From IMG/VR virus record IMGVR_UViG_3300020462_000042, positions 1-25,540 of that record: DNA of 25,540 nt; one strand, 5' to 3'. The stretch comes from a virus. Taxonomy: Duplodnaviria; Caudoviricetes. The stretch's first letter is position 1. Each line of letters opens with the position of its first letter. A program made the position numbers and the translations under genes. The notes beneath the pieces are model-generated. The model did no database searches. It saw nothing but the letters and a program-made list of their open reading frames with translations, and was not told where the DNA came from. Shown piece by piece: positions 10,805 to 23,391 of the stretch.

Positions 10805-11714
10805 CAACCACTCTACCCCACATATTTCCGTAGGTGATTGTTTTCACATTATCATAGTCTGACCATTCTGGTATTTCAGAACCATCATCTATAACTCTGT
10901 AAAACTTTTTATCTGGATATTTCTTGAAATTATTTTCGTGTTGTTCTATCCAGTTCATAGGACTTACATATTTACAATCAGAAGTTATATAACAATCTGT
11001 ATCTTTATAAACATTGTTAACTTTACCTTCTCTAGGCATATCAAATCCTAACATATAGATGTTATCTGTATCTTTATTCTCTTCTATCGCAACTCTGACA
11101 GCAGTAGGGCCTGAACTCCAACCCATAAACTCACCATCAAAGAAACTATCTAAATCTTGAACCTTATCATTTTCATCAACCCAAGTAATCCATAAACCAG
11201 CATTACCTAGTTTCTGTCTTACATCACCTTTCGGTAATCCTTTAAACTTTGTCAATATTTCTAATATTGCATCTTTAAATCTCTCTGGGTCTATTCCGTG
11301 ACAAACTAATTGTGTTTTATTACCTTTTTCATTTTGATGTAGAAACTTATCTACTGTGTCTAATTCTAGACTCTTTAGTTGTTCATTTAATTGTTCCATA
11401 CTTGATTGTTCTAATCCAGTATATTGCAACATCTCAAAGAATTGTTCTGGTAACAGTTTCCATTGTCTAAAATAACATTTGTTATCAGAACAATAACCAG
11501 ATGAATATACCTCGTGCATCATAGCCCAATCAGTTGATATTAATCCATCTGGTTGGAAATCTCTATAAAGTGCATTACACCCATAAATCTTTCCCCATTG
11601 TCTAAATTGTTTTAGGTCATATCCATCTCTAGATTCACCATTACCAAGTACAAATACATTTTTAGGTTTATTATTATCCACTACAAAATCCAATAAAGAT
11701 AATTGTTGCATCAC
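10800..11714 (-). CDS. Rossmann-like transferase (sialyltransferase/MAF-like motifs), function unknown
   Basis: VFVLGNGESR, IYGCNALYRD, WSSGPTA, IYMLGFD. Confidence 0.5.
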   Translation of the reverse strand: MMQQLSLLDFVVDNNKPKNVFVLGNGESRDGYDLKQFRQWGKIYGCNALYRDFQPDGLISTDWAMMHEVYSSGYCSDNKCYFRQWKLLPEQFFEMLQYTGLEQSSMEQLNEQLKSLELDTVDKFLHQNEKGNKTQLVCHGIDPERFKDAILEILTKFKGLPKGDVRQKLGNAGLWITWVDENDKVQDLDSFFDGEFMGWSSGPTAVRVAIEENKDTDNIYMLGFDMPREGKVNNVYKDTDCYITSDCKYVSPMNWIEQHENNFKKYPDKKFYRVIDDGSEIPEWSDYDNVKTITYGNMWGRVVV

Positions 11715-12249: not shown

Positions 12250-13197
12250 TTAATATTGTATGTGTTGTAGTTGTTTTGATACATTTCGTACATAGTCATC
12301 TCTGACCATATCACCCTCGTGTATAAACATATCACAAGAACAATATGCACAATTTTTACCTTGTAATAAGAAATTCAAAACTGTATGTTTAAAGTTCTTC
12401 ATATCCTCATCAAAAGGTTTTAATGGTAAAGTATCAATACCATTATTCTCTAAAATCAATATGGAATTAGTAATAAAAGAAGATTGATTCTTATGTTCTA
12501 ATTTCATATGTTTAAGAAACTCAAAATATTTTTGTACATTAACATTGTATAAACTGTATAAAACAGAATACACAGTTCCTAATTGATGGTGCAATTCATC
12601 TGACTCAAATAGGTCAGCCACATCTGACACCAGACCCTCTGGTGTTATATCATTGATTGCACCTTTATCCCATAAAAAATTCCAATCACTTCTTAACATA
12701 TATTCTATAAGACTTTTTAAATTTCTGGGGTCACCACCATCTTGTATATAACTTCTTCTTTCACACTCGTAATCCATTTTAAAATAATACTGTTTGTTTA
12801 CTATATCATAATTAATTACTTCTATAACATTTACAGATGATTTTTTAAAACATCTAGCATTACCAGTGATTGTTTTTTCTTTAACACTACAAGCACCAAT
12901 AAAGTCTGGAAAAAAAGGTTGATATCTTTCTTGAAATATTCCTACTTTATTTTTCCAACTTTTTCTACTTACAGAATATCCTAGATAAAATATATTTGTA
13001 TCTTGAATTGTATCAAACTCGGTATCGTCTGTAATATCTTTTTCTAGTAATTGGTGATGAGTGTATGGTATACCTAAACCTTTATAATAATGTTCTTTAC
13101 CTTTCCAAACTCTACCACCACAATGAGTTAAATCATCGTCAATTTCTAATCTATTTACTTCTTTACCTTCTTTATCGTATATTGATGTTATATGCAT
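12250..13197 (-). CDS. Hypothetical protein (C-terminal CxxCxC)
   Basis: 315-aa ORF coupled to gp59; CAYCSC near the C-terminus. Confidence 0.65.
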   Translation of the reverse strand: MHITSIYDKEGKEVNRLEIDDDLTHCGGRVWKGKEHYYKGLGIPYTHHQLLEKDITDDTEFDTIQDTNIFYLGYSVSRKSWKNKVGIFQERYQPFFPDFIGACSVKEKTITGNARCFKKSSVNVIEVINYDIVNKQYYFKMDYECERRSYIQDGGDPRNLKSLIEYMLRSDWNFLWDKGAINDITPEGLVSDVADLFESDELHHQLGTVYSVLYSLYNVNVQKYFEFLKHMKLEHKNQSSFITNSILILENNGIDTLPLKPFDEDMKNFKHTVLNFLLQGKNCAYCSCDMFIHEGDMVRDDYVRNVSKQLQHIQY

Positions 13198-13790
13198 TAC
13201 TTTTTATTTTTTGTTAAATTAAGAACTTTCATTTTATACTCTGTTTCATTAATTGTCAATAGTGAATTGTAATTATTTAATTTGTTTTTATGATTAGGCC
13301 ATATGATATTTTCATTTATTTGTTTATCCCAATCTTTTTGATAGTTTACTAACTTGTTTAATATAATCATTGTTTCTATATTAATTCTTTGTGATAAATA
13401 ATTTCTAAACAATATTGGGTGTTGTCCATTTTCAACAGTAAATAATTTATTAAAATCTGTAACTTGATTTAACAACAAGTTCATATCTTGTTCAAACATA
13501 TATTTTAATGATTGATGTCTTTTTTTCCAATCTGTAAAGTTTCTATCATTGAACTCACCAATATAACCTTTTTCATTTTTCAAAAAATTAGATACAAAAA
13601 AGTCTTGTGTATCATCTCCATACTTTCTTGCAACTTTACCAAAAAAATGTTTGTCTTTTCTTTTTAAATAACTTGATTTACTAGCTCTAGTTTTACCACC
13701 GTACTTTGTGAAATCGTAGTCTGAGTTAAAATGTGCTTTCAAACCCATATAAATTTTAAATGCATTAAAGGCGTCCATAATATGAATCAT
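13197..13790 (-). CDS. gp59: Helicase loader gp59
   Basis: YMGLKAHF, YDFTKYGGK, KRKDKHFF, GQHPIL, INIETMIIL. Confidence 0.92.
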   Translation of the reverse strand: MIHIMDAFNAFKIYMGLKAHFNSDYDFTKYGGKTRASKSSYLKRKDKHFFGKVARKYGDDTQDFFVSNFLKNEKGYIGEFNDRNFTDWKKRHQSLKYMFEQDMNLLLNQVTDFNKLFTVENGQHPILFRNYLSQRINIETMIILNKLVNYQKDWDKQINENIIWPNHKNKLNNYNSLLTINETEYKMKVLNLTKNKK

Positions 13791-13996
13791 ACTGGTAGTT
13801 TACCCATTTTAGGTAAAAAGTTTAAATCTCTTGCGTTTGCTTCTATTTTATCTTTAAGTGGTTTCTGGATTAAACCAGTGATTGAATCTGGTTCTATTTC
13901 ATTCTTGATACAATATTCTAATATCGCATCCATATGTGTGATATTTTTCTCTCTGACTTGAGATTCTATGTATATTGAAAATGTTTTTGGTGTCAT
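13787..13996 (-). CDS. gp33: Late transcription coactivator gp33 (start corrected to MTPKTFS)
   Basis: FSIYIE, HMDAILEYC, LKDKIEANARDLNFL, KLPV; the longer track ORF extends through a terminator. Confidence 0.88.
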   Translation of the reverse strand: MTPKTFSIYIESQVREKNITHMDAILEYCIKNEIEPDSITGLIQKPLKDKIEANARDLNFLPKMGKLPV

Positions 13997-14015
13997 TATA
14001 TATTCACAATCTAAT

Positions 14016-14062
14016 AAAAAAAGGGTGGGTTCAAACCTTGAAGGTATTATACCCCACCCCTT
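14016..14062 (-). terminator. Intrinsic terminator after pqqA
   Basis: GGGTGGG...CCCACCC stem with an inner ACCT/AGGT hairpin, then T7. Confidence 0.8.
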
Positions 14063-14073
14063 ATTCAATGAAA

Positions 14074-14151
14074 TTACTTCTCAGCGCAAGCGTAAGAATT
14101 AATTTCTAGTCCTACTGAAATTTCAGTAATAGTTGGTTTTGACCAAGCCAT
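14074..14151 (-). CDS. pqqA: PQQ precursor peptide PqqA (25 aa), not in the ORF track
   Basis: MAWSKPTITEISVGLEINSYACAEK: W-x-K-P start, G-x-E-x-x-x-Y core carrying the Glu and Tyr cross-linked in PQQ synthesis; AGGAGA RBS at 14158-14163; terminator follows. Confidence 0.9.
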   Translation of the reverse strand: MAWSKPTITEISVGLEINSYACAEK

Positions 14152-14173
14152 AGTTATTCTCCTAACTAGTATG

Positions 14174-14205
14174 GAGTGCTGGTTGCCTTGGGCCGCAGAC
14201 CACTC
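14174..14205 (-). other. GC-rich structured element in the pqqA leader
   Basis: GAGTG/CACTC outer stem enclosing a GCC-CAA-GGC hairpin. Confidence 0.4.
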
Positions 14206-14216
14206 ATTATTATTAT

Positions 14217-14470
14217 GGTGAGTATTCTGTTACTAGGAACTCACCGAACCCTATCCGATTAAGCTGCGAGAGCGAAATCTTGAGATGCAAAATTGTCGTT
14301 TGCATTTATTGTGTTTGACCTATAAGGAAGTCAACCCATACTCTCCAATAACTCTTAAATACCTGTCAACCCTATTTCACCCCCTCATTAGGGGTTTTGG
14401 TGGAGGTGGAGGGTACTGCCCCCTCGTCCAGTCTATCTCCAAATTATTTTCATCAAGTATCTCTATATGT
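14217..14470 (-). ncRNA. ssrA: Circularly permuted two-piece tmRNA (alphaproteobacterial type); 5' boundary approximate
   Basis: Acceptor piece ends GAGGGGGCAGTACCCTC-CACCTCC-ACCA at 14398; 13-nt spacer; coding piece starts GGGGGTGAAATAGG at 14384; 7-bp acceptor stem with G3:U70; tag ANDNFASQDFALAA* at 14303-14259; terminal hairpin GGTGAGT/ACTCACC. Confidence 0.93.
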
Positions 14471-14509
14471 ATAATTTATATTTCTGTAAGTTATATGAAC
14501 AAAATTATA

Positions 14510-15196
14510 TTATACTCCAGTCTTTACAGTATTATAATATATATTTAACTCTTTGTCAAGTAGATGTAAATATTGATGTTTCTTTTTTTTAAACTCTTGT
14601 ACTGTGCCATCTTCTGTAACCACTAATATAACTATCTGTTCTATCTCTTGTAATGTTCTTTCTTGATACATCTCTGCATATGCAGAGGCCTGTATGTAAT
14701 AGTTTTCGTTCCAATCATCTTTTCGTTCTTTTGTACTTGTTTTAAAATCAATGACAGATAGAACTCCGTCCCATTCTGCAATACAATCTACTCTACCAGC
14801 GATTTTATAATAATCGTGCCATAGTGTTTGTTCTTGACAATGCACTAATCCAATAGATTCATCTAAATATGGTTTTAGTTGTGAGAACATACAATACGAT
14901 AGAAACCTACCTTTTTTATATTCATTCCAATCTTTGTTCTCATAACCATTGTCTAAATACTTTTCACAATAATGGTGTACTTGAGTTCCTCTGGTTGCAG
15001 ATTTTCTTGCAACATAATTTGCAACATCATCACCAACTCTTTTTCTCCATTCGTGTAAACCTTCTTTACCTCTATTATTTAAAACAGTGGTAATAGATGG
15101 ATAAAACTTACCCTCTGGTGTTTCATATAATCTTATACCATCATTTGTTTTTGCACTTATTTCTGGTATATTTAAATCAAGTTTATGTTTGAACAT
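14510..15196 (-). CDS. PD-(D/E)xK exonuclease of T4-like phages
   Basis: YPSITTVL, RGTQVH, AGRVDCIAE, IDFKTS, YYIQASAYA. Confidence 0.9.
   Translation of the reverse strand: MFKHKLDLNIPEISAKTNDGIRLYETPEGKFYPSITTVLNNRGKEGLHEWRKRVGDDVANYVARKSATRGTQVHHYCEKYLDNGYENKDWNEYKKGRFLSYCMFSQLKPYLDESIGLVHCQEQTLWHDYYKIAGRVDCIAEWDGVLSVIDFKTSTKERKDDWNENYYIQASAYAEMYQERTLQEIEQIVILVVTEDGTVQEFKKKKHQYLHLLDKELNIYYNTVKTGV
14531..14559 (-). promoter_or_regulatory. Consensus sigma70 promoter for tmRNA-pqqA, inside the exonuclease 3' end
   Basis: Perfect TTGACA-N17-TATAAT. Confidence 0.75.
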
Positions 15197-16199
15197 TTAA
15201 TAATATATCCTTAAATTGTTTATAACAGTTTTCCCAAGTCCATTTTTTAGACATTGTGAATACTTTTTTTCTATCTAAATGCAAACAACCTCGTATTGCA
15301 CTTTCCAAGTTATCTTCCATATAACCATTATATCCGTGTTTAATAATATCAATAGGGCCGATAACTGGATAAGATGCAACTGGTGTACCACACGCCATAG
15401 CCTCAATTTGCACCACACCAAATGTATCAACTTTACTTGGAAATACAAACACATCAGCATTTTGATAATATTTTGCTAACTCTTGACCAACTTTTTTACC
15501 TACAAATTTAACATCTGGATATTTTTTTTTAAGTGTTTTTAAATATGGCCCATCACCTACTAATATTTTTATTGATTCTGGATATTCTAAACCACAAAAA
15601 TCATCTAATCCCTTTTCGTGTGAAACTCTACTGACACACAATAATATATTTTTACTTGTCTTTTTATATTTTTTACTAGGTTTAAATATATTTCTATCTA
15701 CACCTCTTGACCAAGCTTTTATATCTTGTGTAAACCCTTTTTCTTTTAACATCTTAACCATAGATTTGGTTGTAGTTAAAATAGTGGTAGAACCCTCATA
15801 GACTTTATGCATATATTTCCAACCAATATTAGATTTAATTATTGGTATTCTTTTTTCAACAAACTCTGGAAACAATGTATGTAAACTCGTAGAAAAGGGT
15901 ATGTTTAATCTCTTACAAGTTCTAACAAAGTTTAAACCAATAGGTGCCTCAGGCGTTGCTATGTGAATGTGTTCCCATTTTTGTTTTTTAAGTAACTTTC
16001 TGATACCACAAGGAAAAGGAACTCCAATAGTTATTTCTTTATAAAGTGGTAATGGAAATCTAATCTTACATCTGCCTGGATGGTAAACATGAATAGTATC
16101 ACCTTGTTTTTTTGCTTGGTCAACAAGGTTTACAAGTGTAGTAACAACACCATTAACTTGTGGTTTCCAAGCATCAGTTACTAATAATATTTTAGACAT
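15183..16199 (-). CDS. GT4 glycosyltransferase (Agt-like glycolipid synthase)
   Basis: LVTDAWKPQVNGVVTTL, HIATPE, HTLFPEF, RGVD, DVFVFPSKVDTFGVVQIEAMACGTPV. Confidence 0.85.
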   Translation of the reverse strand: MSKILLVTDAWKPQVNGVVTTLVNLVDQAKKQGDTIHVYHPGRCKIRFPLPLYKEITIGVPFPCGIRKLLKKQKWEHIHIATPEAPIGLNFVRTCKRLNIPFSTSLHTLFPEFVEKRIPIIKSNIGWKYMHKVYEGSTTILTTTKSMVKMLKEKGFTQDIKAWSRGVDRNIFKPSKKYKKTSKNILLCVSRVSHEKGLDDFCGLEYPESIKILVGDGPYLKTLKKKYPDVKFVGKKVGQELAKYYQNADVFVFPSKVDTFGVVQIEAMACGTPVASYPVIGPIDIIKHGYNGYMEDNLESAIRGCLHLDRKKVFTMSKKWTWENCYKQFKDILLNVQT

Positions 16200-16923
16200 A
16201 ATTTATAATCTTAAATGTTCCGTTTTTCTCTTCAACTAATGCTGAACAACTTTCTACCCAGTCTCCACAGTTCATATAGTCAATTCCATTAATTTTTTTG
16301 ATAGCTGGTGTATGAATGTGTCCACATATTACACCATCATATTGTTTTTCTTTACAATAATTTGATATGAGTTCTTCAAATTTTAAAATAAAATTAAGTG
16401 CTTCTTTAGTTTTAGACTTTAAAAACTTACTTAAAGACCATTGTTTTAGTCCAAATAAATTTCTTAATCTGTTAAGATTTAAGTTTAACATTATTAACCA
16501 AGCATATAATTTATCACCAAAAAACATTAACCATTTAAAGTTTTTATTCATCAATCTATCAAACAAATCGCCGTGAATTATAAGGTATCTTTTTCCATTT
16601 ATTGCGTGGTAATCCGTTTTGTTTAATATTCTAACTTTTCCAAAACTTATTTCAAATCTTAAAAACTTTCTCAAATATTCATCGTGATTTCCAATAATAT
16701 AATAAACTCTTGTTCCGTGTTTTGCTTTACCTAATATTCTTCTAATAACATTAGCGTGACTTGATGGCATATACCATCTATTTTTCAAACGCCACCCATC
16801 AATGATATCTCCTACAAGATATAAATTTTCACAATTATTTTTTTTAAGAAAATCATTTAGTTGTTTTGCTTGACAACCTCTAGTACCTAAATGAACATCA
16901 CTTATAAAAATAGATTTATACAT
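16192..16923 (-). CDS. plcP: PlcP-like metallophosphoesterase (phospholipase C / LpxH2 family)
   Basis: FISDVHLG, LVGDIIDGW, GNHDE, HGDLFD, CGHIH, NCGDWVES; directly upstream of the GT4 gene. Confidence 0.8.
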   Translation of the reverse strand: MYKSIFISDVHLGTRGCQAKQLNDFLKKNNCENLYLVGDIIDGWRLKNRWYMPSSHANVIRRILGKAKHGTRVYYIIGNHDEYLRKFLRFEISFGKVRILNKTDYHAINGKRYLIIHGDLFDRLMNKNFKWLMFFGDKLYAWLIMLNLNLNRLRNLFGLKQWSLSKFLKSKTKEALNFILKFEELISNYCKEKQYDGVICGHIHTPAIKKINGIDYMNCGDWVESCSALVEEKNGTFKIINYV

Positions 16924-17705: not shown

Positions 17706-18410
17706 TTACTCTCCTAGACCAAGTTTTGTTTTTTCTATTAAATATGAGCGAACAAAACCAGAACGAACAATATCACCTATCGTAAATTCTACTGTTTCAA
17801 ATTCTTTCATTTGTTCTAATATTCTCATAAAATCTTGTAGTCCTTCTTTTTCACTCATCTTGGTCAAATCTGATTGAAAGAAATCACCACAAAATATAAT
17901 TCTACTGTCTTGACCAACTCTTGTAACAATCGTATCTAATTCGTGAAAGTTACAGTTTTGAGATTCGTCAACAATTACGACAGCGTTATCTAATGTTATA
18001 CCACGAAGATATGAAGTTGTCAAGAAGGTAACACTACCTTGATTCTTTAATCTGTCGTATAACATACTAAATGCATTATCACTTGATTGTTCAAACATAA
18101 ACTGAACCATATTATGATAGGGTACTTGGTACAATGCAGACTTATCCTCTTCATCACCAGGCAGAAACCCCATATCTCTCGTAGGAACAACTGAACGAAT
18201 AATGATAACATTTTCATATTTACTCTTTGGGTCTAATACTTGTTCTAGTGCAAGGTAAAGTGATATAAAAGTTTTGCCTGTTCCAGCTGCACCAAACAAA
18301 AACAAATTCTTATTTTCTTTTCTCCAGGCATTAAATACTACCTTTTGATTATCTGTAATTGGTTTTACAGTAACTAAGTTATCTAATTTAATATCTTGTT
18401 TCTTACTCAT
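17706..18410 (-). CDS. phoH: PhoH-family ATPase
   Basis: GAAGTGKT, GFLPGD, YLRGITLDN, DESQN, TRVG, GDFFQSD, DIVRSG. Confidence 0.95.
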   Translation of the reverse strand: MSKKQDIKLDNLVTVKPITDNQKVVFNAWRKENKNLFLFGAAGTGKTFISLYLALEQVLDPKSKYENVIIIRSVVPTRDMGFLPGDEEDKSALYQVPYHNMVQFMFEQSSDNAFSMLYDRLKNQGSVTFLTTSYLRGITLDNAVVIVDESQNCNFHELDTIVTRVGQDSRIIFCGDFFQSDLTKMSEKEGLQDFMRILEQMKEFETVEFTIGDIVRSGFVRSYLIEKTKLGLGE

Positions 18411-19119
18411 AATTTTCCTCGTAATTGTTTCCTAAATTGTCAGTATATACTATTTTTTCTATATCACCACTAAACAAAGTGAAGTAATGATTTTGTGATA
18501 TACCGATTGTTCCCTCATATGAGAATATACCTTTACTTGTTTTAACAACAACAGAGTCAATATAATCTGCTGGTATTTCTGTTCTAGTTAATTGATTAAA
18601 TTGTAATCCAGAATAGTTTGGGTGATTGAATTGAATTTTCTTTTTATCAAAATGTAGTTTGTCATCAATAATATCTATTTTATCTTTTGGTACATCATTA
18701 TCAACTATTGGTGTTGCAGAACAACCACCAGCTGCCTTGATATACTTTCTGTTAACATATAAATTACCATCTATATCTTCTGCAACAACAGTTAAATGAG
18801 TGTATGCATTTACTCTTATATTAGTTTCTATGTATGGTAGTAAACCTACAAATTCAAATGTTGCACAACAAGGTGTTGGATTTTCATCAATGATTAAAGT
18901 GAATTTAATTAAATCTTTTGACTTTGTTGTGATAACAATAGGAACATCACCACTATCTATTGCACGATAAGGTGAATCAATAATTATGTCTTTAGTTTGT
19001 ACAATCTTTTGAGAACCATACAAATTATTTTTTAACCATTCATTCCAACTATCTGAACAAACAGATAATGGAAACAGTAAAATGAAAAGACTAAGGACTA
19101 CGCTTTTTATGTTTATCAT
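18403..19119 (-). CDS. Quinoprotein dehydrogenase-associated SoxYZ-like carrier (secreted fusion)
   Basis: Signal peptide; SoxY-like SPYRA, LIIDENPTP, TNIRVNAY, KAAGGCSA fused to SoxZ-like HPNYSGLQFNQLT, IPADYI, ISQN. Confidence 0.8.
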   Translation of the reverse strand: MINIKSVVLSLFILLFPLSVCSDSWNEWLKNNLYGSQKIVQTKDIIIDSPYRAIDSGDVPIVITTKSKDLIKFTLIIDENPTPCCATFEFVGLLPYIETNIRVNAYTHLTVVAEDIDGNLYVNRKYIKAAGGCSATPIVDNDVPKDKIDIIDDKLHFDKKKIQFNHPNYSGLQFNQLTRTEIPADYIDSVVVKTSKGIFSYEGTIGISQNHYFTLFSGDIEKIVYTDNLGNNYEENYE

Positions 19120-22924: not shown

Positions 22925-23167
22925 TTATATCCAATAGTTTATTAAACCAAAAACTGATATAATAAACCCAACAGAGTTTAATAATATGATAGAACCGTCT
23001 TTCCAAAAATATCCTACACTAACCCATACAACACTCCCTATGGTCATAAAGTATAGATTTAGTGGATAGATATTAAAAGATGTAAAACATAAGCCTATCA
23101 ACAATAGGAAAGAACCAAACCATTTTAAACCTCTAACTTCTCTAGTTTCTCTTTCTTTCTTATACAT
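22925..23167 (-). CDS. Small three-TM membrane protein
   Basis: LKWFGS, NIYPLN, hydrophobic helices. Confidence 0.7.
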   Translation of the reverse strand: MYKKERETREVRGLKWFGSFLLLIGLCFTSFNIYPLNLYFMTIGSVVWVSVGYFWKDGSIILLNSVGFIISVFGLINYWI

Positions 23168-23391
23168 CTTCTTGTACTCGCAGCCTTCTCTTTTCTTTTT
23201 CTTTCGTTCCTTGTTTCGTAATATTCTCTTTTACGAAGTTCATTGAACATATCTTCTTTTTGTAGTTTCTTTTTCAGTTTTCTAATTGCCTTGTCTACAT
23301 TTCCGTTCTCTACTGCAACAGCAGTACCAGGCAATCTTTTCTCTGGGAATCTTTTCTTTTTATTAAATTTATGAACTTGTTTGAATCGCAT
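23125..23391 (-). CDS. rpsU: Phage-encoded ribosomal protein bS21
   Basis: VAVENGNVDKAIRKLKKKLQKEDMFNELRKREYYETRNERKRKEK matches the bS21 pattern. Confidence 0.88.
   Translation of the reverse strand: MRFKQVHKFNKKKRFPEKRLPGTAVAVENGNVDKAIRKLKKKLQKEDMFNELRKREYYETRNERKRKEKAASTRRCIRKKEKLEKLEV

Follow-up and report, generated by a model that had tools for sequence, protein, structure and literature searches.

The locus described here raises the question of why a phage should carry a gene for the peptide precursor of a bacterial redox cofactor, and what this peptide could do in an infected cell. The window, that is the whole analysed stretch of 25,540 nucleotides (nt) (IMG/VR record IMGVR_UViG_3300020462_000042, positions 1 to 25,540), is a fragment of a T4-like phage with genes for baseplate, tail tube, gp32, gp59, gp33, PhoH and bS21. 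The source record is a virus fragment estimated to be 17% complete, and the rest of the genome lies outside the pqqB-E search reported below. A sequence-only reading of this DNA had proposed that a 25-amino-acid open reading frame (ORF) at 14074..14151 is pqqA, coding for the precursor of pyrroloquinoline quinone (PQQ). The coordinates stand; the strand, which that reading did not give, is minus (14151→14074, translation MAWSKPTITEISVGLEINSYACAEK followed by a stop), and the plus-strand frame across these positions is riddled with stop codons. The gene and its signals are:

14074..14151, minus strand: pqqA, 25-amino-acid PQQ precursor peptide with Glu16 and Tyr20 (translation, Pfam and NCBIfam matches)
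14158..14163, minus strand (read 14163-14158): ribosome binding site (RBS) AGGAGA, 6 nt 5' of the ATG
14016..14059, minus strand: predicted intrinsic terminator, a stem followed by U7, with a loop containing GUAUAAU, an inner hairpin and UUGAA

The proposed identity passed the profile check that had been suggested for it: the ORF scores 32 bits with Pfam PF08042 (cut-off 21.1) and 39.4 with TIGR02107 of NCBIfam (cut-off 20), while a PHROG search with the peptide gave no match. The strong RBS and the gene's own terminator, both claimed earlier, are in place. The core stem of the terminator (14059-14023) folds at -21.8 kcal/mol with a z-score of -2.74, 3 of 200 shuffles being equally good; a simple terminator scan did not list the hairpin behind pqqA. 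Eleven distinct phage pqqA coding sequences differ mostly by silent changes (crude pN/pS 0.17) and keep Glu16 and Tyr20 invariant, as that reading required, a pattern which suggests purifying selection. It had also noted the absence of pqqBCDE, and none of the 44 longer ORFs in the window matches a pqqB, pqqC, pqqD or pqqE family of NCBIfam. The idea that the phage supplies the precursor only holds comparatively as well: pqqE was found in none of 49 phage records (seven of them at least 90% complete) and in none of five further ones (0/54), and neither pqqD nor a PQQ alcohol dehydrogenase was found in five near-complete records. Judged by these comparisons, the ORF is a real phage pqqA gene, beyond chance. 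It adjoins a permuted transfer-messenger RNA (tmRNA) upstream and gp33 downstream. This tmRNA, a conserved leader hairpin and a second PQQ-linked gene at 18403-19119 are additions to what had been noticed before.

PqqD and PqqE are known to cross-link the Glu and Tyr of PqqA, and one peptide yields one PQQ (PMC12997753). We infer that the phage peptide would be cross-linked in the same way and would be of benefit during infection. Host PqqBCDE would process it into PQQ. PqqA is the only part of the pathway that is consumed, so a stop of host pqqA transcription upon infection would leave the longer-lived enzymes short of substrate; the phage would refill this precursor from a sigma70 promoter of its own, without the operator-like box of the host genes. 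New PQQ could then sustain the methanol dehydrogenase XoxF, and periplasmic methanol oxidation, the main energy source of the host, would continue. We put the probability of this reading, with the host probably belonging to TMED127 (Methylaequorales), at about 0.7. If it is true, many phages of the ocean act on lanthanide-dependent methanol oxidation by means of a 78-base gene of a size that tends to escape standard gene calling.

The gene is not confined to the window. A degenerate pqqA pattern found 119 viral loci in IMG/VR, and about 430 stretches are estimated to carry it. The 80 loci with flanks fall into seven neighbourhoods: two T4-like ones (9 and 4 loci), a GroES/portal/capsid block (30), a holin/ribonucleotide-reductase block (15, possibly one family with the preceding block), a large-myovirus-like one (6), one between the terminase subunits (6) and a T7-like one (2); eight loci lie outside any group. 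pqqA is embedded among phage core genes and the gene order is kept across many independent contigs. A tblastn search of 50,697 GenBank phages gave only two chance matches at E=9 for the peptide and none for the carrier protein described below. The phage peptides share with cellular PqqA (PF08042, TIGR02107) their length, the W-x-x-P motif and the E-x-x-x-Y core, and resemble the stand-alone extra pqqA copies of methylotrophs, of which one strain has five (PMC9851590). They differ in being phage-encoded, in lacking adjacent pqqBCDE and the host promoter box, and in having the leader hairpin. A different phage pqqA type (GMEITAY...) was seen in L039, L088 and L101, of which L088 is a complete 36.5-kb record; we take this type to be Methylophilaceae-like.

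As a gene class, phage pqqA is not new. It was published for the Lake Baikal T4-like phage VP_266 (Coutinho et al., PMC7678222; bioRxiv 10.1101/2020.04.02.019802), also with a proposed boost of methanol oxidation. That case differs in being a single freshwater population with a predicted Methylophilaceae host and a phage-encoded methanol dehydrogenase, and its available account mentions no leader RNA, carrier or alphaproteobacterial host. A literature search that left most subscription papers and the catalogues of viral RNA motifs outside its scope found no account of the marine spread of pqqA, of a TMED127 host or of the hairpin. The available text of PMC12801897, PMC9564219 and PMC11118758 does not report phage pqqA.

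The host was approached through 121 cellular genome loci and a class sample of 401 Alphaproteobacteria, with no other class included. The peptide had been described as alphaproteobacterial in type, which holds comparatively: the closest cellular peptides, from AG-892-F10, TMED13 and related genomes, are identical to it at 23 of 25 positions, with only two conservative differences (T4S and S9T) between phage and host, and those of CM1_5m.P40 and MED657 at 22 of 25. Glass et al. (PMC12542740) place AG-892-F10, TMED13 and related genomes in TMED127/Methylaequorales, predicted obligate methylotrophs with genomes of about 1.5 Mb, in which xoxF5 makes up 16-57% of transcripts. These are streamlined XoxF methylotrophs with several pqqA copies; pqqA is present in 39 of 42 genomes of the order, with up to five matches each. 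The ending EINSYACAEK followed by a stop occurs in 4 of the 401 sampled genomes, exactly the four TMED127 members sampled, one of which is the centre genome and was included by design. A host without pqqBCDE would have spoken against the proposal, and the likely hosts carry both pqqBCDE and a XoxF-type dehydrogenase; pqqE exceeds its cut-off in 23 of 29 selected genomes of TMED127 and other orders. In a TMED127 genomic island, pqqB-C-D-E, a moxJ-like gene, cytochrome c, a methanol/ethanol-family PQQ dehydrogenase and a TIGR04557 carrier lie side by side. We consider it quite probable that TMED127 is the host of the phage. If so, the peptide provides a host marker for phages of an order reported to make up as much as about 10% of surface reads (PMC12542740), and the available main text of that paper makes no mention of phages.

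The second PQQ-linked gene of the window lies upstream of pqqA:

18403..19119, minus strand: TIGR04557 quinoprotein-associated SoxYZ-like carrier, a SoxY+SoxZ fusion (NCBIfam, fold match)

Its product scores 140.5 with TIGR04557 (cut-off 140; three relatives score 141.5-158.4) and fails the canonical SoxY family TIGR04488 (49.4 against 125). The motif of its arm is GGCSA, compared with GGCGG in canonical SoxY, and the top fold match of its AlphaFold model (predicted local distance difference test, pLDDT, 75; predicted template modelling score, pTM, 0.73) is SoxY. A Cys-Cys pair (residues 84-85 in the window carrier) is present in 65 of 68 viral carriers and in none of 42 cellular homologues. 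pqqA follows 0.5-4.6 kb downstream of the carrier in 42 of the 68 viral loci; 24 are too short and two lack pqqA. As a check on selection, loci were also fetched via the carrier instead of via pqqA: pqqA is present in 24 of these 33, and the remaining nine end within 2.5 kb of the carrier. The TMED127 homologue, a neighbour of xoxF, is transcribed divergently (head-to-head) from the methanol-family dehydrogenase next to pqqBCDE, and a review ties the TIGR04557 family to lanthanide quinoproteins (PMC12997753). Judged by family scores and motif, the window 'soxYZ' is best classified as a TIGR04557 quinoprotein-associated carrier and not as canonical SoxYZ of thiosulfate oxidation, and the carrier likely serves maturation or redox upkeep of XoxF. 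In one T4-like group (L026-L034, L038) the genes run carrier - iscA - pqqA - iscU, and this cassette has as neighbours an iron-sulfur (Fe-S) protein of the succinate-dehydrogenase type and a redoxin; its iscA and iscU could supply Fe-S clusters to PqqE.

A conserved RNA element precedes pqqA, between the gene and the tmRNA:

14174..14205, minus strand: leader RNA hairpin of 32 nt, consisting of P1, a G-N bulge, P2, a CG/AAC internal loop and P3 (covariation; no Rfam match)
14216..14507, minus strand: permuted two-piece tmRNA of alphaproteobacterial type, tag ANDNFASQDFALAA (Rfam RF01849, RF04321)
14531..14559, minus strand: perfect sigma70-type promoter match TTGACA-17-TATAAT (consensus match only)

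The tmRNA was left blank by ARAGORN, and this 'no tmRNA' result is overruled by the Rfam match. The promoter (14559-14531) is predicted to drive both tmRNA and pqqA. Within the hairpin the CG/AAC internal loop is invariant and the P3 loop variable. A search for the structural pattern in 4.36 Mb of locus sequence gave 70 matches, many of them near-duplicates, all located 55-76 nt 5' of the PqqA Trp codon. Across 28 distinct copies, standard pairs fill 98.6% of the pair cells and seven of ten pairs show double changes; this degree of pairing was reached in none of 500 shuffles, slid controls gave 26-58%, and RNAalifold returned the same structure. Rfam had no match at E<=5 over 13950-14600, nor at E<=1 in six other loci. 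The motif alone has 119 matches in IMG/VR. The full structure is formed by 77 of these; in 76 pqqA follows downstream, and the one left over is cut after MWSK, while the 42 partial matches are GC-rich and lack pqqA. Metagenomes gave 113 matches: 102 at pqqA, four at truncated pqqA starts, four at rpoH and three at unrelated GC-rich sites. The element follows the peptide ending, being present in 55 of 62 phage SYACAEK copies against 4 of 35 CYACAEI copies. The phages in L083, L089, L102 and L123, which are T4-like with the same tmRNA-pqqA-gp33 order and the ending CYACAEI or SYACADI, lack it and probably infect other hosts. In the large-myovirus-like contigs L036, L048, L057, L090 and L093 a fatty acid desaturase gene lies directly 5' of hairpin and pqqA.

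In cells the hairpin is rare. The possibility that it is the general leader of host pqqA was discarded, as only 1 of 55 cellular SYACAEK copies had it. That copy (L158) is on a 35% GC contig of a Maricaulis bin and looks like misbinned phage. L158, L167 and L204 are all of low GC and bear the titles of other taxa, and their pqqA, ending in EINSYACAEK, is of phage or TMED127 type; the three are probably misbinned. One of 42 TMED127 genomes (a single-cell genome) has the hairpin, located 5' of rpoH, as in the four metagenome contigs, which gives the phage a further link to this order; an unfiltered model search of rpoH loci found it in 1 of 25, and a search of five non-TMED127 genomes, run without a positive control, found none. 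These rpoH-linked loci (L484, G009:C2 about 10937-10988; L541; L545; L552; L591) form one TMED127 lineage, with a spacer and RBS similar to those of pqqA and without the repeat box of most other rpoH promoters. A strictly PQQ-specific role of the hairpin is weakened by these copies. Host pqqA leaders have a TGAA-N-TCA box instead (48 of 53, against 1% in background and 1 of 111 in phages), and a related tandem repeat is found 5' of 24 of 29 rpoH genes and of xoxF; the box patterns were chosen by eye on the very sequences in which they were counted, which makes the enrichment partly circular.

Covariation, conserved unpaired bases and a fixed position 5' of one gene class are structural traits expected of a riboswitch, and the hairpin has all three. 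Folded within its leader, it is no more than marginally stable (mean pair probability 0.35 at 20 °C, above 0.8 in 5 of 97 leaders). When its pairing is imposed, the mean openness of the RBS rises from 0.32 to 0.44, and in 31 of 97 leaders the gain is larger than 0.2. In these folding models the behaviour would fit an element stabilised by a ligand or a protein; through such binding the hairpin likely adjusts how well the short message is translated or how long it lasts. We speculate further, and regard it as doubtful, that it represents a new riboswitch class whose ligand would be PQQ, a one-carbon metabolite or an ion of a lanthanide. With it, ocean phages of several unrelated families, the first assigned to TMED127, would switch on synthesis of the PQQ precursor only when host methanol oxidation can profit, within a viral 'XoxF support kit' of pqqA, the SoxYZ-like carrier with the added cysteine pair, and iscA/iscU for the Fe-S enzyme PqqE. 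In any case the element, 32 nt long, strongly covarying and tied to one clear gene setting, is a cheap candidate for ligand-binding experiments. A comparable arrangement is known from Methylophaga GP59, where pqqA is flanked by a cyclic di-GMP riboswitch (PMC12530212); that is a known class in a cell, whereas the hairpin here has no Rfam family.

Parts of the window are present in six RNA runs. One of them has two contigs that match 14072-14403 exactly and none for the flanking genes; a second has a single contig reaching from 14073 to 14503, including tmRNA and pqqA. In neither case do the contigs show strand or level. In two runs, loose ends agree with the tails of TMED127 pqqA genes.

Several points weigh against the proposed supply of PQQ precursor to XoxF in TMED127. 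The proposed mechanism is drawn from sequence comparison. The holoenzyme recycles its PQQ, and it is assumed that a single lytic cycle calls for a fresh supply. All T4-like relatives in the search are fragments, none more than 40% complete, and pqqB-E may lie elsewhere in the lineage. The window carrier clears its cut-off by just 0.5 bit and belongs to a family without established function even in cells (PMC12997753). The RNA contigs, apart from giving neither strand nor level, come without a silent-stretch control. As to the host, phage carriers form a long-branch clade of their own, not nested in TMED127 (quick tree), the best carrier match in the class sample lies outside the order, tmRNA tags differ between phage and TMED127, and the phage bS21 is matched by 127 of 401 genomes (E<=1e-9), none of the four TMED127 members among them. 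Phage Melnitz has an alphaproteobacterial-type tmRNA yet infects OM43 (PMC9004378); borrowed genes can therefore mislead on the host. Carrier tree, tmRNA comparison and bS21, all tried as host markers, gave no TMED127 signal.

The peptide might become PQQ and yet profit the phage through another quinoprotein (glucose dehydrogenase, or one that mobilises metals or phosphate) or because PQQ is a general redox protectant, rather than through energy from XoxF. TMED127 also transcribes PQQ glucose dehydrogenase (PMC12542740). The ending CYACAEI accounts for 35 of 119 viral matches and is nearer to peptides of marine genomes (G018, G019, G024-G026) that have pqqE but no close carrier homologue, and related phage loci carry redoxin with iscA/iscU. 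However, the phage lineage also keeps the carrier, which in the host is head-to-head with a methanol-family dehydrogenase, and we consider this explanation unlikely.

Another marine methylotroph could be the host with the mechanism unchanged, pqqA and its leader having been exchanged from TMED127-infecting phages. The silence of carrier tree, tmRNA tag and bS21 on TMED127, the Melnitz precedent and the restriction of the sample to 401 genomes of one class all allow for this. It is made quite improbable by the peptide ending, specific to TMED127 within the sample, by the leader common to phage pqqA and a TMED127 rpoH, and by the TMED127 pqqA tails in RNA runs containing the phage stretch.

Kieft et al. 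(2021; PMC8190135) read viral fused soxYZ, with ggCs and variable CC motifs, as thiosulfate oxidation genes. These are the same proteins as the carriers described here; L002 and L004 agree in IMG id and length with soxYZ entries of their Supplementary Data 1. The carrier could accordingly be a thiosulfate-oxidation gene unrelated to pqqA, with pqqA as a near-neutral passenger, and the SoxY/SoxZ folds, the Pfam domains and the published reading favour this. Against it stand GGCSA in place of GGCGG, the passing of TIGR04557 and failure of TIGR04488, the tight linkage of carrier and pqqA with the purifying pattern on the latter, and the candidate hosts: SoxB exceeds its cut-off in none of 42 TMED127 genomes, and true SoxY was found in none of five. 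We hold this alternative to be very improbable. The available main text of Kieft et al. contains neither 'pqq' nor 'quinoprotein', and no paper was found linking published viral soxYZ to TIGR04557 or pqqA. If the quinoprotein assignment is true, marine viral 'soxYZ', which in Tara samples accounts for as much as 34% of the coverage of soxYZ genes (PMC8190135), moves from the sulfur cycle to the one-carbon cycle.

That the peptide is a decoy tying up PqqD/PqqE, for which only the ability of short peptides to act as inhibitors speaks, or that the contig contains host DNA, is scarcely credible, as only the conservative T4S and S9T separate phage and host peptide, T4 core genes flank pqqA, and many independent contigs have the same gene order.

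The remaining features of the window are:

13787..14068 (longest ORF), minus strand: T4 gp33-like late-transcription co-activator, downstream neighbour of pqqA; its true start is probably the ATG at 13996
13197..13790, minus strand: T4 gp59-like helicase loader (context)
14510..15196, minus strand: phage exonuclease (phrog_298), upstream neighbour
23125-23391, minus strand: phage ribosomal protein bS21 (TIGR00030)

The arrangement around pqqA resembles the ssrA-riboswitch-gp33 locus of Melnitz (PMC9004378), a marine T4-like phage in which a two-piece alphaproteobacterial-type tmRNA likewise lies directly 5' of gp33 and the operon also includes a regulatory RNA. In Melnitz this RNA is a glutamine riboswitch; here the slot is taken by pqqA and the hairpin without an Rfam match.

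The element in the terminator loop (GUAUAAU, inner hairpin, UUGAA) was seen in ten variants at 52 loci, including the window, L027, L105, L433 and L666, every one directly 3' of pqqA and with compensating changes in the outer and inner stems; it is possibly a second structured RNA. At 15183-16923 (minus strand) the window has a glycosyltransferase family 4 (GT4) gene paired with an LpxH-like phosphoesterase gene, missing from the close relatives compared and probably constituting a lipid-modifying insert.
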